A stretch of DNA of 64,000 nucleotides from an uncultured Bacteroidota bacterium (GTDB lineage: Bacteria; Bacteroidota; Rhodothermia; Balneolales; HLUCCA01): NCBI GenBank assembly GCA_947085565.1, contig CAMTWZ010000021.1:6025-70024 (forward strand). The letters run 5' to 3'. The position numbers and the translations under genes are program-made. Under the pieces are notes generated by a model. It was not told where the DNA came from. It ran no database searches and saw only the letters and a program-made list of their open reading frames with translations. Below, piece after piece: positions 19,237-32,431 of this stretch; positions within the stretch are counted from its first letter, which is position 1, and the number at the start of each line of letters is the position of its first letter.

Positions 19237-20158
19237 CGACCACCTCGATATTCCGCTTAAGCCCCCCAAACTTCGTCCTTTTCACCGCGCTTTTGCGGAA
19301 CAGCTCCTGGTAGCCATTCAGATCGAGTTCGGACCAGAAGTCGAGGTCGCGCTCGCGAAGAGCCATTCGAGCCAATAATTCGGGATCCGAGCCGGGGCGT
19401 GCTTTCCTGTTCCAGGGACACACATCCTGACAAATGTCGCATCCATACATCCAATTTCCCATGGATGCGTGAAATTCCTGGGGAATGGCCTCGCGCAGCT
19501 CGATCGTCAAATAACTGATGCATCGGGTGGCGTCGACGCGATAGGGTTGATAGATGGCGTCGGTAGGACACGCATCGATGCAGCGGGTGCAGCTGCCGCA
19601 ATGATCTGTGGTAGGAGAGTCTGGTTCGAGCTCTAAGTCTATGATAAGCTCACCGATGAAGAAGAAGGAGCCGTGGTCTTTGTTGAGCACGTTGGCGTTC
19701 TTGCCGAGCCAGCCGATACCGGCTTGGACCGCCCAGGATTTGTCGAGCACGGGGGCGGAGTCGACGAATGCGCGTCCTTCAACGTGGCCGGCCACGGAGC
19801 GGATGAAGGCGAAGAGTTCGGCGAGGGAGGATTTCAGGACGTCGTGATAGTCATCACCTTGGGCGTAAAGGGAAATACGTGGACGCTCGGGATGAGCGAT
19901 GTCGTCGGCACGAAGCTCGGGCTGATTGTAGGACCGGAACACGGAAATCACGGTCTTCGCGCCATCGACCAGCAGACGTGGATCCACCCGTTTCTCGAAA
20001 TGATTTTCCATCCAAGCCATCGTTCCGTGGCGGTCTTCCTTCAGCCAGTTTTCGAGGCGGTCCGCATCCTCATCCAGCCGACGGGCCTTGGCGAAGCCGC
20101 AGGCTTCGAAACCGAGGCGCAAGGCTTCGGAGCGGATGAGGTGGTTGAGGGAAGTCAT
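19217..20158 (-). CDS. queG: epoxyqueuosine reductase
   Basis: Ferredoxin-type CGSCTRCIDACPTDAI and CDICQDVCPWN. Full-length QueG-like layout. Confidence 0.85.
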   Translation of the reverse strand: MTSLNHLIRSEALRLGFEACGFAKARRLDEDADRLENWLKEDRHGTMAWMENHFEKRVDPRLLVDGAKTVISVFRSYNQPELRADDIAHPERPRISLYAQGDDYHDVLKSSLAELFAFIRSVAGHVEGRAFVDSAPVLDKSWAVQAGIGWLGKNANVLNKDHGSFFFIGELIIDLELEPDSPTTDHCGSCTRCIDACPTDAIYQPYRVDATRCISYLTIELREAIPQEFHASMGNWMYGCDICQDVCPWNRKARPGSDPELLARMALRERDLDFWSELDLNGYQELFRKSAVKRTKFGGLKRNIEVVGKNVKA

Positions 20159-20183
20159 GAGGGGGAAGGTACGCAGTTGGTGG

Positions 20184-20213
20184 GGTCCTTCGGGCCTTCG
20201 GCCCTCAGGATGA
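20184..20213 (-). repeat. copy (reverse orientation) of the TCATCCTGAG-hairpin-GAAGGACC element
   Basis: The reverse complement reads TCATCCTGAGGGCCGAAGGCCCGAAGGACC. Compare 21182-21212. Confidence 0.6.
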
Positions 20214-20257
20214 GGGCGCTGTGCTTGGTGAATTAGGTCCTTCGCAATACATAATGA

Positions 20258-20277
20258 CCCCAGGTTAAAACCTGGGG
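20258..20277. repeat. REP-like 20-nt palindrome
   Basis: CCCCAGGTT-AA-AACCTGGGG. Confidence 0.6.
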
Positions 20278-20347
20278 CTAGAATTTACTCTCGATTACGA
20301 AGTCGTACTTCTCGAAATGTCGTGCCATTCGGTATGCTGACATCTAG

Positions 20348-20367
20348 CCCCCGGTTTAAACCGGGGG
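20348..20367. repeat. REP-like 20-nt palindrome
   Basis: CCCCCGGTTTAAACCGGGGG. Confidence 0.6.
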
Positions 20368-20376
20368 TTGTAGATT

Positions 20377-20799
20377 TTAGGCGAATGGATTGATGATTCG
20401 CAAGCCATCTATGCTTTGCCCGTGTTGCAAATCTTCTGAATACAGTACGGAGCAACCTGATTCAAGTGCGGACGCGATGATCAATGAATCATAAAACGAA
20501 TATGACCATCTCTCTTGGATATCGAGAGCTTTGATGGTCAATCCCAGGCTCGAGTTTAATTGCCACATCGGAGACATGATGGACTCGACATACATTCTGG
20601 CGTCACTGTGTTTCAATGGTTTGCTGAACTTTTTGGTAGCGACATTCACAAACTCCTGAACCACTTGATAACTGATTCGAGCCGTAGTTGCTTCAGATGT
20701 CTTGTGAATCAGATCCAGAGCCACATCGCGTTTTCTCGAATCTCGGAGATCGAAGGAGTACACGAAGATATTCGTGTCTAAGAAAACTTTAGCGCTCAT
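20377..20799 (-). CDS. vapC: PIN-domain toxin (VapC family)
   Basis: VFLDTNIFVYSFD N-terminal PIN acidic motif. 140 aa. Overlaps the upstream small gene by 11 nt. Confidence 0.8.
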   Translation of the reverse strand: MSAKVFLDTNIFVYSFDLRDSRKRDVALDLIHKTSEATTARISYQVVQEFVNVATKKFSKPLKHSDARMYVESIMSPMWQLNSSLGLTIKALDIQERWSYSFYDSLIIASALESGCSVLYSEDLQHGQSIDGLRIINPFA

Positions 20800-21007
20800 T
20801 CATGTCATCCCGGGTGAAAGAACGTCCAGCTTCTGCATAAGAAAGTCGCTCCATGACCTCATTTAGACTCATTTTAGTCGATCCCGATGACGCGTAGCTC
20901 GACAGCCACTCTCTGAACTTTTCATTCAGAGTAGTCTTCTCCGTCATCGCTTTCAGTCGAGCTTGTTGGATGAGGGATTCTTCGGCACTAAAGGTGATGT
21001 TTTTCAT
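20789..21007 (-). CDS. putative antitoxin (VapB-like) of the PIN toxin
   Basis: 72 aa from the internal ATG (MKNITFSAEESLIQQARLKA...). Position and overlap with vapC support the call. The longer track ORF starts at a TTG inside repeat DNA. Confidence 0.55.
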   Translation of the reverse strand: MKNITFSAEESLIQQARLKAMTEKTTLNEKFREWLSSYASSGSTKMSLNEVMERLSYAEAGRSFTRDDMNER

Positions 21008-21133
21008 ATCGCACAATTTTCGTGTACACGAGTTTCGTGTAATGTACGTGGTAGAAGTGAAAAAGAAAAGGATGTGAGCACGGGTCCTACGCTTCCCCTT
21101 CGCGTTGCTCAGGGTAAAGCTCAGGACCAATGA

Positions 21134-21153
21134 CCCCCACCTTAAGGTGGGGG
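21134..21153. repeat. REP-like 20-nt palindrome
   Basis: CCCCCACCTTAAGGTGGGGG. Confidence 0.6.
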
Positions 21154-21181
21154 TTAGTGGAAGATCCCCGAATAGGGCGCT

Positions 21182-21212
21182 GTCATCCTGAGCCGCGAAG
21201 CGGCGAAGGACC
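21182..21212 (+). repeat. copy (forward orientation) of the TCATCCTGAG-hairpin-GAAGGACC element
   Basis: GTCATCCTGAGCCGCGAAGCGGCGAAGGACC, inverted relative to 20184-20213. Confidence 0.6.
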
Positions 21213-21265
21213 TAATCCCGCGATACCTCTCGAACCTACAGGCCTTTCGAAGTGCAGCCCTCTAA

Positions 21266-21285
21266 CCCCCGGTTTTAACCGGGGG
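21266..21285. repeat. REP-like 20-nt palindrome
   Basis: CCCCCGGTT-TT-AACCGGGGG. Confidence 0.6.
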
Positions 21286-21325
21286 TTGTTACGAATGAGT
21301 ATTTCCATTTGCTTTGAAATCTCTT

Positions 21326-21487
21326 TATAATTGCATCTAATGAACCCGATCAACATCATCAGCCCAACCCGCACCGAGAGGACCAAACGGACTCCGTCAG
21401 CGAAGGCTATGTCTTGAAGTAGGGAACAACCACATTCAATAAAGGCAGGATCTTCGCGGATTCTGCCTTTTTTTTTGCCCAACGCCC
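21326..21487 (+). promoter_or_regulatory. putative arginine leader-peptide attenuator, copy 1 (upstream of argG)
   Basis: 25-codon ORF 21340-21417 (MNPINIISPTRTERTKRTPSAKAMS) has Arg codons CGC, AGG and CGG within 7 codons. Segment 21400-21415 can pair with 21442-21457, which competes with terminator stem 21444-21452/21459-21467. A T9 run ends 11 nt before the argG ATG. TATAATTG at 21326-21333 resembles a Bacteroidetes -7 box. Confidence 0.65.
21441..21476 (+). terminator. intrinsic terminator of attenuator copy 1
   Basis: GGCAGGATC, loop TTCGCG, GATTCTGCC (9 bp including one GU), followed by TTTTTTTTT. Confidence 0.75.
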
Positions 21488-22690
21488 ATGTCATCACCCA
21501 TCATACTTGCCTATAGCGGAGGTCTGGACACCAGCTTCTGCATTCCTTACTTGAACGAAACCCACGGCGCGCCGGTGCATGCGGTCACGGTCGATTGCTC
21601 GGGCCTGTCGCCCGACGCGCTATCCGCCCTCGAAACCAAAGCCTTGGCCTACGGCGCGGCATCGTTCACTGCCATCGACGGCACACAAAGCATGTACACC
21701 GACATCCTGAGCTGGCTGATCCGCGGCAATGTGCTACGCGACCGCACCTATCCGCTGTGCGTAGGTGCCGAGCGGTTCATCCAGGCCGAAAAGGTCGTCG
21801 GGCATGCCAAATCCATCGGCGCCACGCGCATCGCCCATGGCTCAACCGGGGCCGGCAACGATCAGGTGCGATTCGATGTGGCGCTGCGCACCTTGCTTCC
21901 GGGCGTGGAGATCCTCACACCAATCCGTGATTTGCGTCTCACCCGGGCCTTCACCACGCAGTACTTGCGCGACCGCGGCTTCGAAGTCTCCGACAAAACC
22001 ACCCAGTATTCGATCAACGACGGACTCTGGGGCACCACCATCGGCGGAAAAGAAACCACGACCTCCGAGCAGGCGCTTCCGTTCGACGCCTTCCCGCATC
22101 TCAAAAACCCCGCGACATTCACAGAGCCCGCGGAAACGCTGACGATCGGGTTCGAACTCGGACTTCCGGTAAGCCTGAACGGCCAAGCGCTGGATTCCAT
22201 CCCGCTTTTGCAAGCCGTCCTAGACATCGGCCGGAAGCATGGCATCGGTCGGGGTATGCACTTGGGCGACACCATATTGGGCATCAAAGGTCGGATCGGG
22301 TTCGAAGCGCCGGTCGCCACCATCCTGTATGCCGCACACAAGGAATTGGAAAAACTCACGCTCACCAAATGGCAGCGCCACATCAAAGACCAATTGGGCG
22401 ACACCTACGGCATGTTGCTGCACGAAGGGCAGTATTTCGATCCCGTGATGCGCGACATCGAAGCGTTCTTGGAGCACTCGCAGCGCACGGTGACTGGCAC
22501 CGTGGATCTACACATCGGCAACGGGCAGGTGTTTCCGCTCGGGGCCGAATCCCCATTCAGTCTGATGAATTCGTCCATCGCCAAATACGGCGAAGAATCG
22601 AGCGGATGGACGGGTGAAGAGGCCCGCGCGTTCTCCAAGCTTCACGGAATGGCCACACAAATCGCTTATCAGGTTCAGAACCCGAAATAA
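21488..22690 (+). CDS. argG: argininosuccinate synthase
   Basis: AYSGGLDTS and HGSTGAGNDQVRF signatures. 400 aa. Confidence 0.95.
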   Translation: MSSPIILAYSGGLDTSFCIPYLNETHGAPVHAVTVDCSGLSPDALSALETKALAYGAASFTAIDGTQSMYTDILSWLIRGNVLRDRTYPLCVGAERFIQAEKVVGHAKSIGATRIAHGSTGAGNDQVRFDVALRTLLPGVEILTPIRDLRLTRAFTTQYLRDRGFEVSDKTTQYSINDGLWGTTIGGKETTTSEQALPFDAFPHLKNPATFTEPAETLTIGFELGLPVSLNGQALDSIPLLQAVLDIGRKHGIGRGMHLGDTILGIKGRIGFEAPVATILYAAHKELEKLTLTKWQRHIKDQLGDTYGMLLHEGQYFDPVMRDIEAFLEHSQRTVTGTVDLHIGNGQVFPLGAESPFSLMNSSIAKYGEESSGWTGEEARAFSKLHGMATQIAYQVQNPK

Positions 22691-22708
22691 ATGTGAACTA
22701 CATGTGAG

Positions 22709-23311
22709 CTACAGAGAATGGAAGATCGAATCATCCAGAAGAGTCTCAAGCTCGATAAGCCCAACCTTTCGAACAACGATATGTTCAGATTCAATCTGTG
22801 GGGTTTGTCTAAGTCTACCATAAGGCAGTTTTTGTGTAGAGTAGATTCGCTTCGCTATAATCACTTGAGGTGAGGCAGCATTGTGTGGATGATCCCAATG
22901 CTGCCAAAAATAACGCTGCAGTGCAATATTCGACAGAGAATTGCCAACAGAGATTTCATCGAATTCACTAAAAGAGGATAGGTATTTTAAACCATCAGAA
23001 ACCGAGTTTTCGATCGTTATACCAACAGAGTTGAATCGGTAACCCCGCTTATTCGATTCAATACGGTATCTATCTAAAGCTGAGGATAGTATGTCAGGTA
23101 ATTTAGACTCTTTGGATGAACTGCAAGTGGAGCTTCCAATAAATATTAGAACAATTTCATTCGCATCCGCAAAGGGATCTGCACCCTGAGTCTCATTAGA
23201 AGAACTTTGTGAAGTTGGCGACGAGAAGTTAATTGTCAAAAAGTGTGCGATGAAAAAAGCTAAAATCACAATTGATGCGTTTCGAGCATATACATACAAA
23301 TCAATTTTCAT
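22709..23311 (-). CDS. membrane-anchored hypothetical protein, possible thioredoxin-like fold with CxxS (AT-rich island)
   Basis: Start MKIDLYVYARNASIVILAFFIAHFL (N-terminal TM). VLIFIGSSTCSSS and the later SPQVIIAKR follow the order of the Trx-fold beta1-CxxC and cis-Pro elements. This is pattern-level only. Confidence 0.5.
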   Translation of the reverse strand: MKIDLYVYARNASIVILAFFIAHFLTINFSSPTSQSSSNETQGADPFADANEIVLIFIGSSTCSSSKESKLPDILSSALDRYRIESNKRGYRFNSVGITIENSVSDGLKYLSSFSEFDEISVGNSLSNIALQRYFWQHWDHPHNAASPQVIIAKRIYSTQKLPYGRLRQTPQIESEHIVVRKVGLIELETLLDDSIFHSL

Positions 23312-24521
23312 GAACCATAATAAGTGTAGGTTGAGGGTATGGAGATACAAACGTGATGGCTATATTTGACTTTAGAACCCCAATACGAGCAAAATCATGG
23401 GTATAGGTTAATTCTCCGGAATTGGTGTCTACTAGGATAGTATTAATGGAGTTATTATTGAGTGTCAAATTCTTTTTCTTGGCAAAAAAGTCTTGAGGTA
23501 ATCGATTCACAAATTGCAAAACTGAAAAAGTTCCTATGTCGGTTCTAGGGGTTGGGAGTTTGTGATGTAAGATGTCGGAATTTGTGTAAGAATAGAATGA
23601 AGGTCCTTCCGATGTCATCTCTTCCGTGAATTCAGTGCTTATGTAGCCATCTATTTTTGATATCCATTTTTGATTTCCATCTGTATCGTAACCAAAAATA
23701 TATGGGAAGTGACTAGGATAGCCTACAACAGTTTTTGTTTCATAATTGCAACTTATAAGCGTTTCTGACATTCTGCTGTTCAAAAAACCCCAGCCAGATT
23801 CAGAATTGTATGAGTAGCCAAAGGAAAAAGACGGATTTTGATTCGTCAGATCGAGTCGAAGAATCGGTGCTGTCGATCTGGCTTCACCTTGCTTCTTAAT
23901 TCCTTTGGAAACTGACTCAACATCATCTCGGATAATTCTGTGTCCACTAATGTACAAGTATGAATCGATTATGCAAATGTCAGTTGTTCGAATGATATCC
24001 AATAAGATTGTTTTGTGGTATTCAAATTTTAGATTGTTCCTAGTAAATACTTCGACTTTGTTGTAATCCAAGACATACAGCGACTCGTACTCTTTATCGA
24101 AAACAAAGGAATGGATGCGGAAAAATTCTCCAGGCCCGCGTCCAGCACGCCCAATCTCATATAAGTATGACCCGTATTTATCATAGACATTGATAGTGTT
24201 CCCATGATTTTGAACGATGTAAATATGACCTGTTAGATCGATGTCCATTTTGGGCGGAATACCATCAAAACTTAACTTTCTGGAGAAAATCGAGTCTTTT
24301 CCTATAACTGTAATCGGAGTGGATTCTAGTAAATAGGAAAATGTGTTGCGATAAACCACAGATGGATTTCGGATATCCAATCTGTGGTTTATCTCGTTAA
24401 CTTTTGGAAACTGCGAGTGATCCGGATGTGAAAACTTTCCAGATTTTCCACAACCCATAGCGATCATCCACAATAGAAGACTGGCAACTGTAGATGGACA
24501 AATATTCCTCATCAGTTTCAC
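23301..24521 (-). CDS. lipoprotein, 6-bladed beta-propeller family (GPGEF motif; BF3164/NHL-like)
   Basis: Lipobox MIAMGC. GRAGRGPGEFFRIHSF is the hallmark motif of the Bacteroides 6-bladed beta-propeller family as I recall it. Repeated beta-rich segments. Confidence 0.65.
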   Translation of the reverse strand: MKLMRNICPSTVASLLLWMIAMGCGKSGKFSHPDHSQFPKVNEINHRLDIRNPSVVYRNTFSYLLESTPITVIGKDSIFSRKLSFDGIPPKMDIDLTGHIYIVQNHGNTINVYDKYGSYLYEIGRAGRGPGEFFRIHSFVFDKEYESLYVLDYNKVEVFTRNNLKFEYHKTILLDIIRTTDICIIDSYLYISGHRIIRDDVESVSKGIKKQGEARSTAPILRLDLTNQNPSFSFGYSYNSESGWGFLNSRMSETLISCNYETKTVVGYPSHFPYIFGYDTDGNQKWISKIDGYISTEFTEEMTSEGPSFYSYTNSDILHHKLPTPRTDIGTFSVLQFVNRLPQDFFAKKKNLTLNNNSINTILVDTNSGELTYTHDFARIGVLKSNIAITFVSPYPQPTLIMVHEN

Positions 24522-24528
24522 TTATGAT

Positions 24529-24738
24529 TTAGGAACAGGGTACTCCACCACACTGTGCCCCATTATTGCCACCGCACTCACCGTATCCCATTGTGTAATC
24601 ACAAAATCCGTTTTTAACGTCAGGGTTGGAGAAGTTGCAGAGGCCACATGGTCCTAATGCACTGGCTCGATTATTCGAACCGGTAAAAATTCCAATTGCT
24701 ATCGCAATGGTAACAACTACAGCTAATTTTCTATTCAT
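24529..24738 (-). CDS. 69-aa Cys/Gly-rich secreted peptide precursor
   Basis: MNRK + LAVVVTIAIAIGIFTG + SNNRASA, then a 42-aa core with 6 Cys and 10 Gly (LGPCGLCNFSNPDVKNGFCDYTMGYGECGGNNGAQCGGVPCS). Ends 7 nt upstream of the propeller gene start. Confidence 0.6.
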   Translation of the reverse strand: MNRKLAVVVTIAIAIGIFTGSNNRASALGPCGLCNFSNPDVKNGFCDYTMGYGECGGNNGAQCGGVPCS

Positions 24739-24947
24739 ATGACTAGGTTTAAAAGGTTATTGAAACTACTCTGACTTTATAAAAAAAAAAGTTCTATTGC
24801 AACACGTCGACTCAACTATTTTTGACAAAAGAGGACCTGTGAAAAAAACATTTACAACTGAACATATGTGTAGGCTGAGGAACTCTTGACCAATAGTTAA
24901 GTTCAGCTGGAAAAAAATCCGCATTTCCATTTCCCTTCAAAAAGATT

Positions 24948-25106
24948 TATTATTGGGGATGTTCAACAAACTAGCACAAAGCCTCACCCGCACCGAGAGG
25001 ACCAAACGGACTCCGTCAGCGAAGGCTATGCCTTGAAGTAGGGAACAACCACATTCAATAAAGGCAGGATCTTCGCGGATTCTGCCTTTTTTTTTGATAA
25101 CCACCC
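24948..25106 (+). promoter_or_regulatory. putative arginine leader-peptide attenuator, copy 2 (upstream of the arg operon)
   Basis: 25-codon ORF 24959-25036 (MFNKLAQSLTRTERTKRTPSAKAMP). Positions 24986-25095 are 109/110 identical to 21367-21476. Antiterminator 25019-25034 : 25061-25076 (12 WC + 2 GU + 2 mismatches). Terminator 25063-25071/25078-25086 plus T9. ATG of the next gene 11 nt later. TATTATTG at 24948-24955. Confidence 0.65.
25060..25095 (+). terminator. intrinsic terminator of attenuator copy 2
   Basis: Same hairpin plus T9 as 21441-21476. Confidence 0.75.
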
Positions 25107-26177
25107 ATGACCATCGCACTCGAAACCATCACCGCCGACATCATCGCATCCAGTTCCGGATCGGTCAAGCTCACGAACCCCATCACATTGGCGAAAAATG
25201 TGGTGGCGCAGGAGGGATATTTGGTCGCAGTGCGCACGCTCGACGACAAAGACACCTACAACAAGCTCGAAATCACAACAGGGGAGTTCGTGACCTACGG
25301 TCCGGGTAAGATCGTGATCGGCGCTTTGGGCGAACGCCAGGCGTTGCGAGGCTACAGTGGCGTGATTCCACGTTCCGTGAAAGCGGGCGACATCCTGCAT
25401 ATTCTGAACATGGGTGGCATCATCGGGACGTGCCAATCGCCGCATCCGGATTTTGGTCCGGCGATGCGGGTGGAAGTCCTCGGTGCCGTGATGGTGAACG
25501 ACGATGGACACATGAAGCACGCCTGCATCCAAGATCACGCCATCGACTGGGTGTATTCTCTCGAAGCGACCGCGCCGTTGATCGGCGTGACCGGAACCGC
25601 GATGAATGTGGGAAAAACCATGGCCGCTTCGCAGATCGTGAAACATCTGGCGGACAAAGGATATAAAGTCGGTGCTGTGAAACTCACCGGTGCCTCGCTC
25701 ATGCGCGATGTGCGTTCGATGATGGATCAAGGCGCCGCGTTCTGCACCCATTTCTCGGAAGCCGGACTCGTCTCCACCACCGGAAAAAACATCCTTCCCA
25801 TGGCCAAGGGACTCATCCATCACCTGAATTCACTGAAGCCAGATGTGATTGTGATGGAATTCGGGGATGGGATCATTGGTCCGTATGGGGTGGATAGCTT
25901 GCTGATGGACAAGGAAATCCAGCGCAACATCACTTGTCATGTCGTGGCTGCGCAAGATTTCATGGGATGTTGGGCGGCGGATAACTTCTTCCGGAAGCGG
26001 TACAACCGGGACATTCACATTTTCACGGGTCCGGTGACCGATAACCTGGTCGGCATCCAGTTCATTCAGAACACGATGGGCATCCGCGCGGTGAATGCCG
26101 TCGCCGATTCGGCCACACTTGGCGCTTGGGTCGAAGAAATCGCGTTCAAGAAGCCACAGACGGAGGATTTCTTGTGA
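25107..26177 (+). CDS. uncharacterised P-loop (BioD/DUF1611-like GTxxxVGKT) protein, first gene of the arg operon
   Basis: 356 aa. GVTGTAMNVGKTMAASQIVKHLADKGYKVGAVKLTG and VIVMEFGDGIIGPYG resemble the deviant Walker A and the EGQG-type segment of DUF1611/dethiobiotin-synthetase-like folds. Translationally coupled to argC (GTGA at 26174-26177). Confidence 0.75.
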   Translation: MTIALETITADIIASSSGSVKLTNPITLAKNVVAQEGYLVAVRTLDDKDTYNKLEITTGEFVTYGPGKIVIGALGERQALRGYSGVIPRSVKAGDILHILNMGGIIGTCQSPHPDFGPAMRVEVLGAVMVNDDGHMKHACIQDHAIDWVYSLEATAPLIGVTGTAMNVGKTMAASQIVKHLADKGYKVGAVKLTGASLMRDVRSMMDQGAAFCTHFSEAGLVSTTGKNILPMAKGLIHHLNSLKPDVIVMEFGDGIIGPYGVDSLLMDKEIQRNITCHVVAAQDFMGCWAADNFFRKRYNRDIHIFTGPVTDNLVGIQFIQNTMGIRAVNAVADSATLGAWVEEIAFKKPQTEDFL

Positions 26178-27121
26178 AGCGTCATACCGTCGCCTTAGCC
26201 GGAGCCAGCGGATACACGGGGATGGAAGTGCTGCGGATCGCGATTTCGCATCCGGGTATCTCCATCACCGAATTGTATGGCGCGAGCTCGGCAGGGAAGA
26301 CCATCCAAGAGCTCGTCCCGGCGTTCGAAGGCTATTATGATCTTGTGATTGGCGATATCGCCACAATCTTTGATACCAACGCCGATGCGGTGATCCTCGC
26401 GCTGCCTCACGGCGAATCCGCATCCATCGTCGATGCGCTTCTCGCCAAGGGGTACAAAGGCAAGATCGTGGATATCGGCTCGGACCATCGCGCCGATTGC
26501 CGCGCCATCTACGGCTTGGTGGAAGCGTTCCGTGATAGTCTGGTCGGCGCCGATTTCGTGGCCAACCCGGGTTGTTTCGCCACGGCGATTCAGCTCGGCG
26601 TGAAACCGCTCAGCGATTCCGGACTCGTCGATCAGGTCTTTGTGACCGGAGTGACGGGTTCATCTGGTTCCGGAGCTACTCCTTCTACTACGACACATTC
26701 TTCGTCAAGAATAGGTAACCTCAAGGCGTACAAAGTGTTCGAGCATCAGCATTTGGATGAGGTCCGTCACACGGTCGGCATTCCGGTGAATTTCGTGCCG
26801 GTGAGCGGACCGTTCGTCCGCGGCATCTGGATCACCATCCAAGCCACATTAAACCAAGACGCGGATGTGGATGCGATCTTTGCAAACGCCTATGCCTCTT
26901 CGCCGATGGTGCGCCTTCGCAAAGGACTTCCCGAGCTCAAACCCGTCATCGGCACCAATTTCGCCGATATCGGATGGGTGGTAAAAGGAAATCATATTGT
27001 TGTTGGTGTCGCCATCGACAATCTCGGAAAAGGCGCGGCCGGACAAGCGCTTCAAAACCTCAATCTCATGCTGGGTCTGCCCGAAACCACGGGACTGCTC
27101 ACACCTCCGCAACTGTTATGA
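26174..27121 (+). CDS. argC: N-acyl-gamma-glutamyl-phosphate reductase
   Basis: ALAGASGYTGMEVLRI NAD fold. Active-site NPGCFATA. GTG start overlapping the upstream stop. Confidence 0.9.
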   Translation: MKRHTVALAGASGYTGMEVLRIAISHPGISITELYGASSAGKTIQELVPAFEGYYDLVIGDIATIFDTNADAVILALPHGESASIVDALLAKGYKGKIVDIGSDHRADCRAIYGLVEAFRDSLVGADFVANPGCFATAIQLGVKPLSDSGLVDQVFVTGVTGSSGSGATPSTTTHSSSRIGNLKAYKVFEHQHLDEVRHTVGIPVNFVPVSGPFVRGIWITIQATLNQDADVDAIFANAYASSPMVRLRKGLPELKPVIGTNFADIGWVVKGNHIVVGVAIDNLGKGAAGQALQNLNLMLGLPETTGLLTPPQLL

Positions 27122-28272
27122 CCGATTGGAAAGCCATTGAAGACCAGTACGAAGCGCTCACCTATGCGCGCTGGCCTGTCGTGTTCGAGCGGGGAGAGGG
27201 CATTCATCTGTTCGATGAATCGGGCAAGAAATATGTCGATCTGTACGGCGGACATTGCGTCTCCATCTTAGGCCATTCGCCGACTCGTGTGACAGAAGCC
27301 GTTTATACCCAAGCCAAGCAACTGCCGTTTTACTCGAACGTCGTCTATCATCCATCCCGCGCGAAAGCCGCGAAAACGCTGGTCGATATGGCGGATGGGT
27401 TCGATCGCGTGTTTTTCTGCAATTCCGGAACCGAAGCGAATGAAAACGCCATCAAACTGGCCTGGCAGTTCACCGGGAAGACGCACATGCTCAGCACCAC
27501 GGGCGGCTGGCACGGACGGACCCTCGCCTCCATATCCGTCACCCACACCGAAAAAATGCGCAAACCGGTACTATTCGCGCTTCCGGACGTGACGTTCGTC
27601 CCCTTCGGGGATGCGGATGCGCTGCAAACCGTGCTTGAATCGCGCGATGATGTGGCCGGACTCATCCTCGAACCCATCCAAAGCATTTCCGGATGTGTGA
27701 TGGCGGATGCGAGCTATTACCGGCGCATCCGCGAGCTGTGCGACGAGCACGGTGTGGTCCTCATTTTCGATGAAATCCAGACCGGAGTGGGCCGCACCGG
27801 CACCTTCAGCATTTCCGAAGGATTCGGAATGCGTCCCGATCTCATCACGCTGGCCAAGAGCTTGGGCGCCGGTTTCCCCCTCGGCGCCGTCCTCATGCCC
27901 GAACGCATCGCCACCACCCTGCGCATCGGGGACCTGGGTTCCACCTTCGCGGGCGGCATGATGGCCATGGCGGCGTGCGAAGCCACCTTGAACGAAATCT
28001 CCGAGCACAACCTCATGTCGAACGCCCCGCTTCTGTTCGACGCCCTTCGCGTGGCCCTGGCCGACGCGCCGATCGAACTGCGCGGAAAAGGGGCGCTAAT
28101 CGGACTCAAACTGCCGAAACCTGCAAAAGACGTCGTTACTGAGCTGTTCAACCGCGGCTGGATCACCGGCACGTCCGACGATCCCCACGTGATGCGCCTC
28201 ATGCCGCCGCTCATCACTCCAACTACCGTCATCACCGAATTCGCACACGAGCTACTCGATGTCCTCCACTAA
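27118..28272 (+). CDS. argD: acyl-ornithine aminotransferase (class III PLP)
   Basis: FDEIQTGVGRTGTF and LAKSLGAGFPLGAV (PLP-Lys region). ATGA overlap at 27118-27121. Confidence 0.9.
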   Translation: MTDWKAIEDQYEALTYARWPVVFERGEGIHLFDESGKKYVDLYGGHCVSILGHSPTRVTEAVYTQAKQLPFYSNVVYHPSRAKAAKTLVDMADGFDRVFFCNSGTEANENAIKLAWQFTGKTHMLSTTGGWHGRTLASISVTHTEKMRKPVLFALPDVTFVPFGDADALQTVLESRDDVAGLILEPIQSISGCVMADASYYRRIRELCDEHGVVLIFDEIQTGVGRTGTFSISEGFGMRPDLITLAKSLGAGFPLGAVLMPERIATTLRIGDLGSTFAGGMMAMAACEATLNEISEHNLMSNAPLLFDALRVALADAPIELRGKGALIGLKLPKPAKDVVTELFNRGWITGTSDDPHVMRLMPPLITPTTVITEFAHELLDVLH

Positions 28273-29278
28273 TCTCACTCATTTCACAAGCCTCTCGGAT
28301 TGGTCGAACCCCGATCTGAACTCCATCATCGACACGGCCATTCGCCTGAAATCTGGCGCGCTGACCTCCCAAGCCGGTAAAGGGAAGGTGTTAGGACTTG
28401 TTTTTTTCAATCCCTCGCTACGAACGAAGATCTCCTTTGAAGTCGCCGCCGCGCACTTGGGTGCGACCACGGCCTTGGTGCAGCCCGGACAAGGCTCCTG
28501 GACTCTCGAAACCGAGCCAGGCGCCATCATGGACGGCAACAAGACCGAGCATGTGAAAGAAGCGATCCAGGTCTTGTCGCAATACTGCGATGCGATCGGA
28601 GTGCGTGCATTTTCCGGACTTAAAGACCGCGATGCGGACTACGGCGATTTGCTGTTGAACCGCATCCGCGAGTATGCCACGGTTCCTGTCATCAATCTCG
28701 AAAGCGCGATGGAGCATCCATGTCAGGGCTTGGCGGATTGGATGACCATTAATGAGCTTTTCCCGGGAGGGACTAAGGGCAAGAAACTGGTGCTTACCTG
28801 GGCGCCTCATCCGAACCCGTTGCCGGTCGCTGTACCCAATAGTGTCTTGGACGTGGCGTCGCGCAGTGGGATAGACGTGACATTGGCGTGTCCGCCGGAA
28901 ATGTTACTCAATGCCGAGACGCTTGAGCGGGTGAAAACGATGTGTGCGTCGAACGGGTCTCGGTTCGTGGTGGATCACGATCAGAGTCGGGCGCTGCATG
29001 CCGCGGATGTGGTGTATGCGAAGAGTTGGGCGTCGGGGTTGGTGTACACCGATCCCGAGAAAGAGAAATCGCTGCGTTGGGAAACCTACCGAGATTGGAC
29101 ACTCACCGGCGAGAAGATGGCGCTCACCAACGAGGCCAAGTTCATGCACTGCCTGCCGGTGCGCCGCAATGTGGTGGTCGCCGATGAGGTGATCGACTCG
29201 CCGAATGCGGTCCACATCCAAGAAGCGGGCAACCGTCTTCACGTGCAAAAAGCCATATTGCTGAAGCTATGGGAATGA
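28259..29278 (+). CDS. argF': N-acetyl/N-succinyl-ornithine carbamoyltransferase (ArgF' type)
   Basis: FFNPSLRTK, WTLETEPGAIMDGNKTEH, LTWAPHPNPLPVAVPNS and FMHCLPVRRN closely follow my memory of Bacteroides fragilis ArgF'. Lacks the canonical OTC DxxxSMG. Confidence 0.85.
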   Translation: MSSTNLTHFTSLSDWSNPDLNSIIDTAIRLKSGALTSQAGKGKVLGLVFFNPSLRTKISFEVAAAHLGATTALVQPGQGSWTLETEPGAIMDGNKTEHVKEAIQVLSQYCDAIGVRAFSGLKDRDADYGDLLLNRIREYATVPVINLESAMEHPCQGLADWMTINELFPGGTKGKKLVLTWAPHPNPLPVAVPNSVLDVASRSGIDVTLACPPEMLLNAETLERVKTMCASNGSRFVVDHDQSRALHAADVVYAKSWASGLVYTDPEKEKSLRWETYRDWTLTGEKMALTNEAKFMHCLPVRRNVVVADEVIDSPNAVHIQEAGNRLHVQKAILLKLWE

Positions 29279-30030
29279 CCGTCCTCAAACTGAGCGGAAG
29301 CCTGAGCGATGATCCGACCTCGCTGGATTTGGTGTGTCAATTCATCTCAGAACACGGATCGCAAGTCGTTGTGGTGCATGGCGGTGGAAAACAGATCAAT
29401 GAGATGTGCGCACGGCTCGGAATTCCGGTGTTGCAAGTCGCCGGACGCCGCATCACCACTCCTGAAACCATGGATGTCCTTCTTAAAACCGTGGGAGGGA
29501 GCCTCAACCGCGGACTCGTTTCTGATTTCCGGTCCCGCGGAATACACTCCGTCGGACTCACCGGCGCGGATGGCGGACTCACCACATCCCGGAAGCGTCC
29601 GCCTCTGGTCATCGATGGCGTGGAAACCGATTTCCAGCTGGTTGGTGAGTTGGAGTCGGTCGATCCATCCATCCTTCAGACACTTATCGCTGGAGGATTT
29701 GTGCCCGTAATCGGCTGCCTCACGTGGAGCGAGGAGCACGGGTATCTGAACATCAACGCGGACACCTTCGCCATCGCCATCGCGAACGCGCTACGCGCCG
29801 ATCAGCTCGTGTTTCTGATGGAGCCCGAAGCGGTCTTGGATGCGGAGAAGACGCCAATCTCCCGCATGACGAAGAATGACTTTATCGCCGGTGTGTCGCA
29901 AGGATGGATCACAGACGGAATGCGTCCCAAGCTCGAAACCGGCTTCAAAGCGTTGGAATCGGGGATTCAAAGCGTGACACTGACGAATCCGGCCGGGTTG
30001 GCCGCGCAAAAAGGAACCACACTCGCATGA
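29269..30030 (+). CDS. argB: acyl-glutamate kinase
   Basis: VVVHGGGKQIN and the amino-acid-kinase fold. The second ATG (29275) forms an ATGA overlap with the argF' stop and may be the true start. Confidence 0.9.
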   Translation: MGMTVLKLSGSLSDDPTSLDLVCQFISEHGSQVVVVHGGGKQINEMCARLGIPVLQVAGRRITTPETMDVLLKTVGGSLNRGLVSDFRSRGIHSVGLTGADGGLTTSRKRPPLVIDGVETDFQLVGELESVDPSILQTLIAGGFVPVIGCLTWSEEHGYLNINADTFAIAIANALRADQLVFLMEPEAVLDAEKTPISRMTKNDFIAGVSQGWITDGMRPKLETGFKALESGIQSVTLTNPAGLAAQKGTTLA

Positions 30031-31103
30031 ACTGGCTCACCGATCATCCAAAAGAATTATTGAAAGCGGTCGTGCGGTTTCCGAGCCTCAGCACGAAGGA
30101 AAAACCATTGGTGGATTGGCTTGAAGCGGAAATCCAGGCCCTGAATCTGGTCCAGGTAGAGCGATATGGCGATAATCTCGTGTTTTCACTGGGGTCCGGC
30201 GCGCCATGGCTCATGCTCAATTCGCACACCGATGTCGTTCCGCCATCCCCGAATCATATCGGCGATCCGTTCGAGCCGGTGGAGCGTGATGGGAAACTGT
30301 ACGGACGCGGCACGGTCGATGCGAAAGGCTGCGGTGTTTCGATGCTTCGCGCATTATTGGAATTGGCGGAATCGGGCTATCAGCCAAAGGGCAAAGTGAG
30401 CGTGTCGCTCACGATCTGCGAAGAAACCGCGGGTGAGCACAACGGGATGCATCATTTGCGTCATGTCGTCGGACTCCAACCCGACGCCGCGCTCATCGGC
30501 GAACCGACGATGTTGGCGCCCTGTCTGGCGCAGAAAGGAATGCTTTTAGTGAAACTGGTGACCACGGGGGAATCGGGGCATGCGGCGCGGGTGACCGGTC
30601 CGAACGCCATCTCACGCATGGCGTCGGTGCTCGCGAGTCTGCAGGATGTGAGTTTCAAGGAGGAAAACCCATTCATCGGGTCCGTGAAGATCACTCCGAC
30701 CATGATTTCCGGTGGGACCGCGAAAAACGCGAATCCGGAAGTGTGCGAGGTGATCGTCGACATCCGCACCATTCCGGAAGTGCCGAATGAGCTCATCATC
30801 GACACGCTGAAAACCATGCTCTCCTGCGACGTCCACGTCCTTAGCGACCGTTTCGTGGCCACGCAGACGGATCCCAACTCCGTGATCGCGCAAAGTTGCC
30901 TGCGTCGTAGCGGAAAGCCGTTTTTCGGGTCACCGACGGCTTCCGACTGGGTATTCTTAGCCGACATTCCGTGCATCAAGATCGGTCCGGGCGACAGCAC
31001 GAAATCACACACCGCCGACGAACACATCGACCTTACGCAGCTCGAAGCGGCGGTACCCTTGTATAAATCCATCATCCACGACTATTTCGAGACACATCCA
31101 TGA
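30027..31103 (+). CDS. argE: M20-family deacylase (ArgE/DapE-like; acyl-citrulline or acyl-ornithine deacylase)
   Basis: NSHTDVVPP and GRGTVDAKG metal-binding motifs. ATGA overlap at 30027-30030. Confidence 0.7.
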   Translation: MNWLTDHPKELLKAVVRFPSLSTKEKPLVDWLEAEIQALNLVQVERYGDNLVFSLGSGAPWLMLNSHTDVVPPSPNHIGDPFEPVERDGKLYGRGTVDAKGCGVSMLRALLELAESGYQPKGKVSVSLTICEETAGEHNGMHHLRHVVGLQPDAALIGEPTMLAPCLAQKGMLLVKLVTTGESGHAARVTGPNAISRMASVLASLQDVSFKEENPFIGSVKITPTMISGGTAKNANPEVCEVIVDIRTIPEVPNELIIDTLKTMLSCDVHVLSDRFVATQTDPNSVIAQSCLRRSGKPFFGSPTASDWVFLADIPCIKIGPGDSTKSHTADEHIDLTQLEAAVPLYKSIIHDYFETHP

Positions 31104-32431
31104 GCAGCCTTTGGAAAAAAGAGGGACAATCTGACTCGCACGACTGGTTTCATGCGTTCACCACAGCCGAAGACCGTGCCCTGGATCAGCGTTTGGTGCC
31201 TTATGACCTGTGGACGAACGCCGCCCACGCCGCGGTCCTTTTTCGTAGCGGAATCCTCACCGACGCTGAGTTGGCGAAGCTCCGTGCTGCGCTTTCTTCC
31301 TTGCTCGCCTCCGCACTCACCCTCGCACCGGAAGACGAAGATGTTCATAGCGCCGTGGAAAACCGCTTAACCGCCGAATTGGGCGATCTGGGCAAGAAAA
31401 TCCATACCGCACGGAGTCGGAACGACCAAGTGCTGACCGATTTGAGGCTGCATGCCCGTGAACAGATCTTGCATACCTGCGGGAAGCTGTTATCCATCGT
31501 GAAGACTCTTTTCGCGATCGCGGAAGCCAATAAGGGCGTGGGTTTCGCCGGAACGACGCACACGCAACCGGCCATGCCGAGCTCGGTCGACGCGTGGGCC
31601 TTGGGCTACGCCGATCTGCTTCTTCAGACGCTGAATGCCGCGCCGAGCGTGTATGCGGCGATCAACCGCTCGCCGCTTGGAACCGCGGCAGGGTATGGGG
31701 CGCCGCATTTCGAGCTGGATCGTGCTTTCGCGGCCGAGCTCTTGGCGTTCGACTCGGTGATCACGCCCGTGGCGGGAGCGCAGCTCAGCCGGGGTTCGGA
31801 TGATCTGCGCCTGGCCGATTGGCTCTGCTATGGATTGGGAACGGCGCATCGGGTGGCGGCGGATCTGATCTGGATGGCGCATCCGGCGCAAGGCTTCATC
31901 CGCCTCTCAGACGACCAATCGTCGGGAAGCAGCATCATGCCTCAGAAACGCAATCCGGACGCGTTGGAGCTCATCCGTGGCAGCTGGCATGAGGCCACGG
32001 GCTATGCGCACACCATCCGCTCGCTCAGCGCCGGACTCATTTCCGGCTACCACCGCGATCTGCAACTGATCAAGAAAGCAAGTTTCGCGCTGTTCGATCT
32101 CAATTCCTCTGTCCTCGACGCGTTTGAGCGCTGCCTGAGCGGCATCCGGTTCGATTCCGATTCTTGTTCGAAAAGCATCACGCCAGAGGTGATGTCCACA
32201 CATCATGCGAACAATATGGTGAAGGACGGGATGCCGTTCCGCGACGCATATCGCCAAGCTGCGCAGGATCTGAAATCCGGTGCGGTTTCTGATTCCGGAA
32301 ATGCACTGCAAGCGTACCTGAATCCGGGAGAGCCGGGGAATCCGGTCTATCCGGAACTCTCGGAACATCTTTCCTGGCTGAAAACACAAATCGCGCGGAT
32401 ACAAGACGCAAAAGACGCCAGTTTCGGTTAA
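31100..32431 (+). CDS. argH: argininosuccinate lyase
   Basis: GSSIMPQKRNPD signature. 443 aa. ATGA overlap at 31100-31103. Confidence 0.95.
   Translation: MSSLWKKEGQSDSHDWFHAFTTAEDRALDQRLVPYDLWTNAAHAAVLFRSGILTDAELAKLRAALSSLLASALTLAPEDEDVHSAVENRLTAELGDLGKKIHTARSRNDQVLTDLRLHAREQILHTCGKLLSIVKTLFAIAEANKGVGFAGTTHTQPAMPSSVDAWALGYADLLLQTLNAAPSVYAAINRSPLGTAAGYGAPHFELDRAFAAELLAFDSVITPVAGAQLSRGSDDLRLADWLCYGLGTAHRVAADLIWMAHPAQGFIRLSDDQSSGSSIMPQKRNPDALELIRGSWHEATGYAHTIRSLSAGLISGYHRDLQLIKKASFALFDLNSSVLDAFERCLSGIRFDSDSCSKSITPEVMSTHHANNMVKDGMPFRDAYRQAAQDLKSGAVSDSGNALQAYLNPGEPGNPVYPELSEHLSWLKTQIARIQDAKDASFG

Follow-up and report, generated by a model that had tools for sequence, protein, structure and literature searches.

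Leader-peptide attenuators are known for tryptophan, histidine, phenylalanine, leucine, threonine and isoleucine/valine and, more recently, for cysteine, and textbooks cite the synthesis of arginine as the standard example of control by a repressor, ArgR. The enterobacterial trp, his, leu, thr, phe and ilv attenuators (trpL and hisL among them) combine a short open reading frame (ORF) rich in codons for the end product, an intrinsic terminator ahead of the first structural gene, and an antiterminator that competes with this terminator for a common strand, the position of the ribosome choosing between the two helices. An element found at arginine operons of Balneolales shares all three features. 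It differs from the enterobacterial systems in the amino acid, arginine, in having no Shine-Dalgarno sequence and a 5′ UTR of probably 0–5 nt, in that a 1:2 anti-antiterminator is unsupported (z −0.93), and in matching no Rfam family.

Attenuators of related phyla, described in Bacteroidota, include the Rfam family Bacteroid-trp and the Flavobacterium psychrophilum leaders at ilvE, hisG, trp and aromatic genes (PMC9723704 supplement). These occur in a similarly Shine-Dalgarno-poor context and control amino-acid operons by the same logic; however, their cognate amino acids are Ile, His, Trp and the aromatic ones, with none reported for Arg (PMC9723704), and the Balneolales element has no sequence or model similarity to them. 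In mycobacteria, leaderless polycysteine short ORFs likewise have the sensing ORF begin close to, or right at, the mRNA 5′ end, with a run of pathway amino-acid codons upstream of biosynthetic or uptake genes, but they act on translation, not transcription, through occlusion of the Shine-Dalgarno sequence (bioRxiv 10.1101/834739; PMC4633059), whereas the terminator of the Balneolales element is intrinsic and canonical and has a U9 tail.

Ribosomes that pause on the Arg codons of a short ORF upstream also serve as an arginine read-out in the Salmonella speF leader orf34, which targets ornithine decarboxylase (PMC6386406), and in Staphylococcus aureus rbfL, where pausing occurs at rare AGA and AGG codons and the target is a biofilm regulator (PMC13009471). 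Both differ from the Balneolales element in that their targets lie outside arginine biosynthesis and they work through Rho termination, RNase G decay or occlusion of the ribosome-binding site, rather than an intrinsic terminator/antiterminator switch. The Arg T-boxes of Firmicutes and the ArgR/ARG-box system resemble it in that arg genes answer to arginine or to the charging of tRNA-Arg; unlike an Arg T-box, however, the Balneolales element lacks T-box features and any Rfam match, and the tRNA would be read via the ribosome rather than by direct RNA–tRNA binding. ArgR, for its part, binds DNA and controls initiation.

The window (the whole 64,000-nucleotide stretch of DNA analyzed) is likely to hold two ribosome-mediated transcription attenuators that sense charged tRNA-Arg, one before argG and one before orf356-argCD-argF′-argB-argE-argH. 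Literature searches found no leader-peptide attenuator of arginine biosynthesis and Rfam searches found none either, in keeping with the remark in the preliminary description of this DNA that such a bacterial attenuator is not known to have been described. An Arg attenuator would fill an apparent gap in the set of leader-peptide attenuators and would show that attenuation is able to sense an amino acid that has six codons and several isoacceptors. Its relatives grade naturally from RRRRRIRRR to R..R..R, a series that bears on the number and the kind of codons required, and its probable leaderless start would couple the control of transcription termination to 70S initiation at a 5′ AUG.

The leader and proposed switch upstream of argG

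The first copy of the element comprises the following features.

21302–21331, + strand: promoter-like site (TTTCCA at 21302–21307, an 18-nt spacer and TATAAT at 21326–21331; 10/12 match)
21340–21417, + strand: leader ORF 1, 25 codons encoding MNPINIISPTRTERTKRTPSAKAMS, with its TGA stop at 21415–21417
21400–21415, + strand: antiterminator strand GCGAAGGCTATGTCTT, the final 16 nt before and into the stop codon of the leader; its partner is 21442–21457
21441–21476, + strand: intrinsic terminator (5′ arm 21441–21453, loop 21454–21457, 3′ arm 21458–21470, T9 at 21468–21476)
21488–22690, + strand: argG, argininosuccinate synthase (NCBIfam TIGR00032, 295 bits against a cut-off of 268), the proposed target of copy 1

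The preliminary description had noticed a 25-codon ORF with Arg codons at positions 11, 14 and 17, and the window sequence bears this out (CGC at 21370–21372, AGG at 21379–21381 and CGG at 21388–21390). Its ATG follows the end of the promoter-like site (21331) after 8 nt and the TATAATTG box (21326–21333) after 6 nt, and the position of the promoter-like site is also kept in relatives. The absence of a Shine-Dalgarno sequence from the leader is as expected, because 40 of the 42 genes in the window also lack one (it is present in just two). AGG is a rare codon, accounting for 5.8% of Arg codons in the window's genes. Three Arg codons are not significant by themselves (P of at least three in 24 codons, 0.15), and the case for an Arg attenuator therefore rests on comparison.

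The antiterminator helix contains 14–15 pairs, including three G·U pairs, plus a 1×1 internal loop. The fold of 21400–21457 reaches −18.5 kcal/mol (z −4.1), a value matched by none of 200 shuffles, and the duplex alone reaches −15.9 kcal/mol (p 0.005–0.008 against dinucleotide shuffles), so that the pairing of 21400–21415 with 21442–21457 first proposed from inspection holds up. The antiterminator strand begins 9 nt beyond the last Arg codon, and a ribosome stalled at that codon may clip its first base. The terminator hairpin was originally described as having 9 bp and proves to have 13, with a 4-nt loop (−17.3 kcal/mol, z −5.4), while its T9 run, the 11 nt between this run and the argG ATG (21488), and the identity of argG itself, whose TIGR00032 score lies above the cut-off, all stand. 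Antiterminator and terminator, which the preliminary description had already taken to be mutually exclusive, reach −18.5 and −17.3 kcal/mol, respectively. No other terminator-like site occurs in the scanned region 20500–23500. A candidate 1:2 anti-antiterminator hairpin (21357–21415; −13.9 kcal/mol) is no better than shuffles. When the untranslated, truncated transcript is folded, the antiterminator forms in the window element, and 1:2 pairing is favored in the related locus L001.

The element is well supported in silico as an Arg attenuator and probably responds to arginine in vivo; where transcription starts, that the leader is translated, that ribosomes stall on it and that arginine has an effect in vivo are inferred from these features, as follows. 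Transcription would start at the leader AUG or a few nucleotides upstream, and a ribosome on the 25-codon leader would trail RNA polymerase. When Arg-tRNA is plentiful, the ribosome would reach the UGA and cover 21400–21415, upon which the terminator (21441–21470 and U9) would fold and the transcript would end about 135 nt from its start. When Arg-tRNA is scarce, the ribosome would stall at CGC, AGG or CGG (codons 11, 14 and 17), leaving the 16-nt strand free to pair with 21442–21457, in the terminator's 5′ arm and loop; with the antiterminator formed, polymerase would read through into the arg genes. Because only three non-adjacent Arg codons are present, sensitivity may be low in the window's clade. 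The default without translation may be read-through, unlike that of E. coli trp, because the untranslated, truncated fold already forms the antiterminator.

Conservation of the leader and proposed switch among Balneolales

The search of argG upstream regions in relatives that the preliminary description had proposed, for short ORFs with Arg codons followed by a terminator, returned a short ATG-initiated ORF and a terminator at the equivalent position in all of the Balneolales argG loci examined (20/20). Balneolales-type loci with the element are the window, L001–L006, L020 and L104–L114, and the carriers include the cultured Natronogracilivirga saccharolytica (GCA_017921895.1, with the element at L114:988–1148) and the isolates ANBcel1 and ANBcel3, so the element is directly testable in cultured hosts. 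The earlier proposal of trp/his-type logic is upheld to the extent that its core elements testable in silico are present and conserved across Balneolales, the 1:2 hairpin excepted.

Arginine accounts for 21.4% of 639 leader codons, compared with 5.6% in the window's genes. Orthologous leaders (e.g. MIVTRYVSVINRRRLRRKNCC, MESKETYYLLIENRRRRFRRRLMAGICEDCV and MKNQFLHIAQIANRRIRRRRRGISIPPEGCLITV) contain 4–10 Arg codons each, against three in the window, and the deeper relatives have dense runs such as RRRLRR, RRRRFRRR and RRIRRRRR. Arginine is the sole conserved coding feature of these ORFs, and all leaders begin with ATG. Codon 17 shows a synonymous change within the window's clade (CGG to CGA). 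A −10-like hexamer stands 5–11 nt ahead of this ATG in most elements; under a strict rule, a promoter-like −35/−10 pair ends 5–11 nt before it in 12 of 23 elements, compared with 4.8% of control ATGs. The spacing suggests a nearly leaderless leader mRNA, with a 5′ UTR of probably 0–5 nt, and gives indirect support to the near-leaderless transcript postulated originally.

Complementarity between the antiterminator strand and its partner is significant (p<0.03, 1000 dinucleotide shuffles each) in 20 of the 23 elements, the three non-significant ones being L026, L089 and L107, and Fisher's test over 13 lineages gives 8e-13. In an alignment of 16 sequences, 92.4% of antiterminator cells are paired and compensatory changes are present; in the terminator alignment, 96.6% of cells are paired and four pairs have changed on both sides. 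Sliding the partners lowers the paired cells to 65% or less for either helix. Columns 77 and 83, in the 5′ arm of the terminator, covary both with the antiterminator strand (UA↔CG) and with the 3′ arm (AU↔GC).

The geometry is conserved as well. The antiterminator strand begins 9–26 nt past the last clustered Arg codon, under or adjoining the stop codon, its start lying between 31 nt upstream of the stop and 1 nt after it. With a ribosome footprint of assumed length masked at the Arg codons, the 5′ arm of the terminator pairs with the leader over 5–13 of its 11–16 nt; with the same footprint masked at the stop, this arm is unpaired in the window's clade, and in other clades the residual structures are weak (0 to −6 kcal/mol; −11.6 in L027).

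The element is also specific in its location. An ORF with at least four Arg in seven codons together with a terminator whose stem has 11 or more pairs occurs only directly upstream of argG, at eight loci (513 kb, both strands), and covariance model R1 matches only elements at arg operon starts, on the + strand (492 kb, E<1e-3). This model or its alignment could seed an Rfam family. Existing Rfam models give no leader (Trp, His, Leu, Thr, Phe or Bacteroid-trp), T-box or riboswitch match in 20000–23000 at E≤10, and at the gathering score only tRNA in the whole window; matches of psRNA14 to a plain hairpin, and of miRNA and DnaX models to the terminator, were dismissed as noise.

Several other loci were considered and rejected. 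The Rhodothermales loci (L007–L018 and L022) have neither leader nor terminator and carry a conserved 55-nt block before argG instead. A metagenome scan with an ArgG alignment retrieved mainly distant loci, of 45–53% identity. Many of the apparent R/K-rich "leaders" at these loci (L058, L074, L079, L101, L049 and the xVYRxxxR peptides) derive from out-of-frame reading of an acetyltransferase-like gene that precedes argG there, and have no terminators.

It is conceivable, though somewhat less likely than not, that a leaderless Arg-codon-sensing attenuator replaces or supplements ArgR across the Balneolota lineage and constitutes the first arginine-specific classical attenuator. An ArgR regulon would have palindromic ARG boxes overlapping its arg promoters, and no obvious palindrome is seen in the promoter region that the copies share. 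If the leaderless reading is true, the ribosome must load on the 5′-terminal AUG as soon as it emerges; termination would then depend strictly on the arrival of a pioneer ribosome at the stop codon, because there is no convincing 1:2 hairpin and the untranslated state would be read-through; and the promoter, leader and terminator would behave as a portable module.

Competing explanations

The alternative that survives best, although it is unlikely, is a degenerate relic in which the switch has been kept but three scattered Arg codons are no longer arginine-specific, leaving a constitutive partial terminator or a general sensor of translation efficiency in which any slowdown of the leading ribosome would give read-through. 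The number of Arg codons indeed declines from 7–10 in deep relatives through 5–6 in L104–L106 to three in the window group, a count that is not significant in 24 codons, and Thr15 is kept in the clade through synonymous ACC/ACG/ACA changes. The three Arg codons are nevertheless invariant in five of five close copies, in which the 3′ half of the leader is likewise invariant while its N-terminal half diverges and neighboring codons change. Moreover, one of the three is the rare AGG, and the duplicated unit described below has stayed in functional form. In E. coli, two Trp codons suffice for the trpL attenuator.

A Thr or mixed Thr/Arg leader was rejected. The caution raised in the preliminary description, that Thr codons are interleaved with the Arg codons, has lost its force, given that Thr10 and Thr12 vary even among near-identical relatives of 95–98% identity (F/N, N/S, T/I) and distant leaders show no Thr enrichment.

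Protein-mediated attenuation is very improbable. An arginine-responsive TRAP- or PyrR-like protein would bind CGN-rich RNA and pick the helix, the ORF being incidental; runs of CGN triplets do look like a repeated RNA motif, and a terminator/antiterminator pair would suit such a mechanism too. Yet in every case the Arg frame begins with an ATG right after the promoter-like site and closes at or just past the antiterminator strand, and an ATG-ORF spanning the cluster exists in this frame and not in the other two in 21 of 23 elements. All six kinds of Arg codon, including AGG and AGA, are used across the leaders, so there is no common RNA motif, and only three scattered triplets remain in the window's clade. 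These observations agree better with decoding of the leader by a ribosome, as the Arg attenuator requires.

Even less probable is a reading in which the ORF is accidental and the unit is an unrelated sRNA gene or simply a promoter-proximal terminator, its hairpin ending a short independent transcript or an upstream gene. Such a reading leaves unexplained the in-frame Arg enrichment, the covariation of the antiterminator and the duplication before the split-off half of the operon, and the element is confined to arg operon starts, even though a promoter-like site, about 135 nt and a terminator do resemble an sRNA gene and the leader ORF was never annotated by gene callers (it is missing from the annotation of 11 contigs). 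The upstream genes are divergent, on the minus strand, which also led to rejection of the hairpin as the terminator of an upstream gene. Least credible of all is nascent-peptide sensing of free arginine in the style of the fungal arginine attenuator peptide (AAP), which likewise places arginine biosynthesis under uORF control but in which high arginine stalls the ribosome: the leader peptide is unconserved except for Arg, its C-terminus (EDCV, AKAMS, KSCS) follows the RNA helix, and stalling inside the ORF gives read-through, the wrong sign for a sensor of excess arginine.

The second copy and the split operon

The preliminary description missed a second copy of the element at 24924–25095. Its features, together with those of the insert that precedes it and the genes that follow it, are listed below.

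22684–24923, no strand assigned: insert between argG and orf356, of lower GC content (about 45% against 55%)
22709–23350, − strand: insert gene without hits
23301–24521, − strand: insert gene, DUF5128 beta-propeller
24529–24738, − strand: insert gene, Cys-rich secreted peptide
24924–24953, + strand: promoter-like site (TTTCCA at 24924–24929, an 18-nt spacer and TATTAT at 24948–24953; 9/12 match)
24959–25036, + strand: leader ORF 2, 25 codons encoding MFNKLAQSLTRTERTKRTPSAKAMP and a stop
25019–25034, + strand: antiterminator strand, within leader ORF 2
25060–25095, + strand: intrinsic terminator (hairpin 25060–25089, T9 at 25087–25095), identical to that of copy 1
25107–32431, + strand: orf356 to the argH-like gene, the proposed regulon of copy 2
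25107–26177, + strand: orf356, the first gene after copy 2
to 27121, + strand: argC
26974–28272, + strand: argD
28259–29278, + strand: N-acetylornithine carbamoyltransferase (argF′)
29269–30030, + strand: argB
29904–31103, + strand: M20 deacetylase, argE-like
31100–32431, + strand: Lyase_1 protein, argH-like

The promoter-like site of copy 2 ends 5 nt before its leader ATG and is of the type found at the argG promoters of L001 and L020. Leader ORF 2 carries the same three Arg codons (CGC at 24989–24991, AGG at 24998–25000 and CGG at 25007–25009), and its terminator lies 11 nt before the orf356 ATG; covariance model R1 scores this copy at 92.4 bits. The single substitution in the helix preserves pairing, as a U-to-C change (Ser25Pro) turns an antiterminator G·U into G-C, and the helix reaches −21.2 kcal/mol.

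Relatives keep the gene order argG-orf356-argC, and both L001 and L002 have the stop codon of argG and the start codon of orf356 overlapping within ATGA. Homology to these two loci breaks off at about 22682. Judged from this comparison, a 2.4-kb insert broke an ancestral argG-orf356-argC operon and thereby separated argG from the remainder in this genome, and promoter, leader and terminator appear to have been duplicated together at the time of the split, so that the distal half has its own set. Such duplication within one genome is rare evidence of its kind and suggests that the module has been selected as a whole.

Regarding the first gene of the distal half, a literature search on DgcN/DUF1611 retrieved only unrelated acronyms, and a search of PDB sequences gave no match to orf356. 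The sole match of orf356 in Pfam is the DUF1611 P-loop family, below threshold, and its fold search points to generic SIMIBI P-loop NTPases.

Anatomy and folding of the argG leader region

A leader ORF with Arg codons stands directly upstream of argG and is followed by antiterminator and terminator helices that share a strand and have similar energies. The element is conserved in Balneolales with covarying helices and Arg-enriched leaders, stands at the start of arg operons and is duplicated in the window. It is best read as classical ribosome-mediated attenuation that responds to Arg-tRNA charging, a mechanism for which we infer the transcription start site, leader translation, ribosome stalling and the response to arginine.

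Features of the element upstream of argG
ending at 21331, plus strand: promoter-like site 1, TTTCCA-18-TATAAT, 8 nt before the leader ATG
21340 (ATG) to 21415-21417 (TGA), plus strand: leader ORF 1, 25 codons, MNPINIISPTRTERTKRTPSAKAMS
21370-21372, 21379-21381 and 21388-21390, plus strand: Arg codons CGC, AGG and CGG, read directly
21400-21415, plus strand: antiterminator strand 1, the final 16 nt of the leader, pairing with 21442-21457 (terminator 5' arm and loop)
21441-21453 with 21458-21470, plus strand: terminator 1, 13 bp, loop UCGC, nine U at 21468-21476
from 21488, plus strand: argG, starting 11 nt past the U-run; NCBIfam TIGR00032 score above cut-off

Rereading of 21000-21700 matched the preliminary description almost base for base, except that the hairpin reported there as 9 bp has 13. 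Folding assigns -17.3 kcal/mol (z -5.4) to the terminator, the sole terminator-like site detected within 20500-23500, and -18.5 kcal/mol (z -4.1; equalled by 0 of 200 shuffles) to the antiterminator segment 21400-21457, in agreement with the mutually exclusive helices proposed earlier. The classical model's 1:2 hairpin (21357-21415 in the window) is unsupported there (z -0.93), and untranslated RNA may default to read-through.

Shine-Dalgarno-like motifs occur within 20 nt of the start in only 2 of 42 long window ORFs; initiation in this genome is therefore SD-independent, as in Bacteroidota, and the lack of such a motif before the leader is uninformative. A -35/-10-like pair ending 5-11 nt before the leader ATG is present, under a strict rule, in 12 of 23 elements compared with 4.8% of control ATGs. 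Direct reading reveals TTGATA/TTGATT/TTGCAA-17-TATCTA/TATTTA placed exactly 6 nt upstream of the ATG at four further argG loci of relatives (L003, L004, L108, L109) and a common TTGACA/TTGACT-18-TTCTTN-9-ATG at three others (L005, L111, L112). With promoter-like sites this near the ATG, the leader mRNA is probably leaderless or nearly so.

Farther upstream lies a VapC/PIN gene (20377-20799, minus strand), and L110 has a PIN and MazE-antitoxin pair in the same place. Region 21130-21300, upstream of the argG promoter, contains two perfect GC-rich hairpins, CCCCCACCTTAAGGTGGGGG (~21133-21158) and AACCCCCGGTTTTAACCGGGGGTT (21264-21287), and a GTCATCCTGAGCCGCGAAGCGGCGAAGGACC motif (~21183-21213) also found upstream of the L020 leader; all of them resemble REP- or MITE-type repeats. 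An Rfam psRNA14 match in this region corresponds to the hairpin alone.

Conservation, covariation and specificity

Three Arg in 24 codons is not significant (P(>=3) = 0.15 at the window's Arg usage of 5.6%), and the case therefore rests on relatives. ArgG identity (95-98% to proteins from three MAGs, 57-80% to numerous Balneolales or Balneolaceae proteins) assigns the window to Balneolales, in the phylum Balneolota. In 20/20 Balneolales-type argG loci (window, L001-L006, L020, L104-L114; L115 left out), the interval between the divergent upstream gene and argG contains a short ORF opened by ATG, together with a strong terminator. Arg codons are the sole feature common to the leader peptides.

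Leader peptides of Balneolales argG loci
Window clade (ArgG 77% or more): ...R-E-R-T-K-R..., 3 to 6 Arg
L003: MIVTRYVSVINRRRLRRKNCC
L109: MQTKVNSLTIRRRIRRESCG
L110: MANLQLTNIVLTIRRLRRRRTGILHICEGQAM
L006: MKNQFLHIAQIANRRIRRRRRGISIPPEGCLITV
Isolate ANBcel3: MESKETYYLLIENRRRRFRRRLMAGICEDCV
Isolate ANBcel1: MKLNMTYNLCNDSRRRRFRRRLERDLCKDCV
Natronogracilivirga saccharolytica: MLIQITYPLNDSNRRRRRIRRRSPDGTCGDCV

Farther afield, four loci from metagenomes or MAGs (L021, L026, L027, L089) show the same layout. Arg accounts for 21.4% of 639 codons in 24 leaders, followed by Ser at 8.5%, and the ATG-ORF across the Arg cluster is confined to the Arg frame in 21 of 23 elements. Such leaders are systematically unannotated: the ORF is missing from the public annotation of 11 contigs (L104-L113 and L114), and that of L110 has a 103-aa ORF spanning the attenuator region in its place. 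In a subgroup including cultured isolates (L005, L111, L112, L114), the distance from terminator to argG is 110-240 nt, compared with 11-50 elsewhere, leaving an extra untranslated stretch between the two.

Twenty-three elements were folded as transcripts ending before the terminator 3' arm, with ribosome positions masked. When the ribosome occupies the last clustered Arg codon, 5-13 of the 11-16 arm nucleotides pair with the leader 3' end; when it occupies the stop codon, window-clade elements leave the terminator 5' arm unpaired, and the other elements retain only weak structures, at 0 to -6 kcal/mol (L027, -11.6). Tested against 1000 dinucleotide shuffles, pairing of the leader's 3' segment with the terminator's 5' arm and loop reaches p<0.03 in 20 of 23 elements but not in L026 (0.077), L089 (0.39) or L107 (0.50); combined across 13 lineages by Fisher's test, p = 8e-13. 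The antiterminator strand begins 9-26 nt past the last clustered Arg codon, and from 31 nt upstream of the stop codon to 1 nt after it. In a MAFFT alignment of 16 elements (A3), paired cells amount to 92.4% for the antiterminator and 96.6% for the terminator, compared with at most 55% and 65%, respectively, when partners are slid. Columns 77 and 83 of the 5' arm covary with each of their two possible partners (UA<->CG for the leader strand, AU<->GC or GU for the 3' arm), which is the prediction of a mutually exclusive helix pair. The conserved peptide C-termini AKAMS*, EDCV* and KSCS* are simply the translation of the antiterminator RNA strand.

Both strands of the window and 103 loci (513 kb) were scanned for a terminator preceded by an ORF that has four or more Arg codons within 7. 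Stems of at least 11 pairs occur at eight sites only, all 24-110 nt upstream of argG; the remaining matches have stems of 6-10 pairs, none upstream of argG. Covariance model R1, trained on 16 elements and run over 492 kb, yields, on the plus strand at E<1e-3, attenuators only, including L107 and L006 from outside its training set. Neither leader nor terminator was found before argG at thirteen Rhodothermales loci. Six Rhodothermaceae loci (L009, L011, L013, L015, L017, L022) carry a conserved GTGATCCAAGATTGCATGCATGCGTTGAAAGGCGATTGTTCCATAATT block directly before argG, about 60 nt upstream, which may be a promoter or operator (perhaps for ArgR); if so, the sister order may be under a different control mode.

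Alternative explanations and known systems

The most serious rival is that the switch has become degenerate and non-specific in the window clade, where leaders have three spaced Arg codons, one of them the rare AGG (5.8% of Arg codons) and the final one just 9 nt from the antiterminator strand; this is a weak point of the attenuator reading for that clade, and the unsupported 1:2 hairpin is a second. This rival is improbable; we confirm the observation of the preliminary description, and its Arg-attenuator interpretation is supported. Three further readings are each at odds with several observations: a TRAP-like protein that recognises CGN repeats, an independent sRNA, and a nascent-peptide sensor of the AAP kind.

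The evidence supports the element as an arginine member of the well-known leader-peptide attenuator class, and it is directly testable in cultured relatives. Rfam 15 contains no family matching it, and no arginine leader-peptide attenuator of arginine biosynthesis was found in full-text searches, which covered literature mostly outside subscription journals, so an older description may exist. Seliverstov et al. report arginine T-box regulation elsewhere and nothing in Actinobacteria (PMC1262725), and the Flavobacterium psychrophilum transcriptome has leaders for Ile, His, Trp and aromatic only (PMC9723704 supplement). Recently reported cysS and aroF leaders are routine members of the class (PMC8632094). 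The nearest Arg-codon sensors, Salmonella speF orf34 (PMC6386406) and S. aureus rbfL (PMC13009471), differ in target gene and read-out. The nearest leaderless sensors, mycobacterial polycysteine sORFs (10.1101/834739), act on translation.

The second copy, the split operon and orf356

The preliminary description identified the copy before argG correctly and overlooked a second whole unit before orf356.

Features of the insert and the second copy
22709-23350, minus strand: gene with function unassigned
23301-24521, minus strand: DUF5128 six-bladed beta-propeller protein
24529-24738, minus strand: 69-aa Cys-rich peptide, MNRKLAVVVTIAIAIGIFTGSNNRASALGPCGLCNFSNPDVKNGFCDYTMGYGECGGNNGAQCGGVPCS, with an N-terminal hydrophobic segment resembling a signal peptide
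24924-24953, plus strand: promoter-like site 2, TTTCCA-18-TATTAT, upstream of leader 2
24959-25036, plus strand: leader ORF 2, MFNKLAQSLTRTERTKRTPSAKAMP
25060-25089 plus U9, plus strand: terminator 2, identical to that of copy 1
25107-26177, plus strand: orf356, about 356 aa, ATG 11 nt past the terminator 2 unit

Downstream of orf356 follow argC, argD, N-acetylornithine carbamoyltransferase, argB, an M20 deacetylase and an argH-like lyase. The argG stop and the orf356 start overlap in close relatives (L001, L002) and in every other Balneolales contig, where the operon is continuous behind one attenuator. Homology of the window to these relatives stops at ~22682 and restarts at ~25105, around an insert (22684-24923) of lower GC (about 45%) with three minus-strand genes and no transposase or integrase seen; the distal half has therefore gained its own promoter-leader-terminator module at the split. 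The copies are identical between the first Arg codon and the U-run apart from a single U-to-C change, which in copy 2 produces Ser25Pro and converts an antiterminator G.U to G-C (-18.5 to -21.2 kcal/mol). The sequences 5' of the Arg codons are of different types, both present in close relatives (MNPIN.. in L002; MFNK.. in L001 and L020), and the N-terminal half of the peptide is thus unconstrained.

Lying between argG and argC, orf356 is conserved yet 'hypothetical' in every annotation, with homologs at L001-L004, L006, L019, L025-L027, L033, L044 and others, and often outdoes ArgG in conservation (L107: 86.7% vs 71.5%). Since the operon lacks argA and argJ, orf356 is a candidate for the absent first-step enzyme and may serve that or another arginine-pathway function; a link to DgcN-type N-acetyltransferases is conceivable. 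A Pfam search returned nothing above threshold, the DUF1611 P-loop match having E 0.007, and the N. saccharolytica homolog appears in UniRef as 'DUF1611 domain-containing'. In the AlphaFold model (pLDDT 88.8), an N-terminal beta-rich domain accompanies a C-terminal SIMIBI P-loop fold that resembles dethiobiotin synthetase or HypB.
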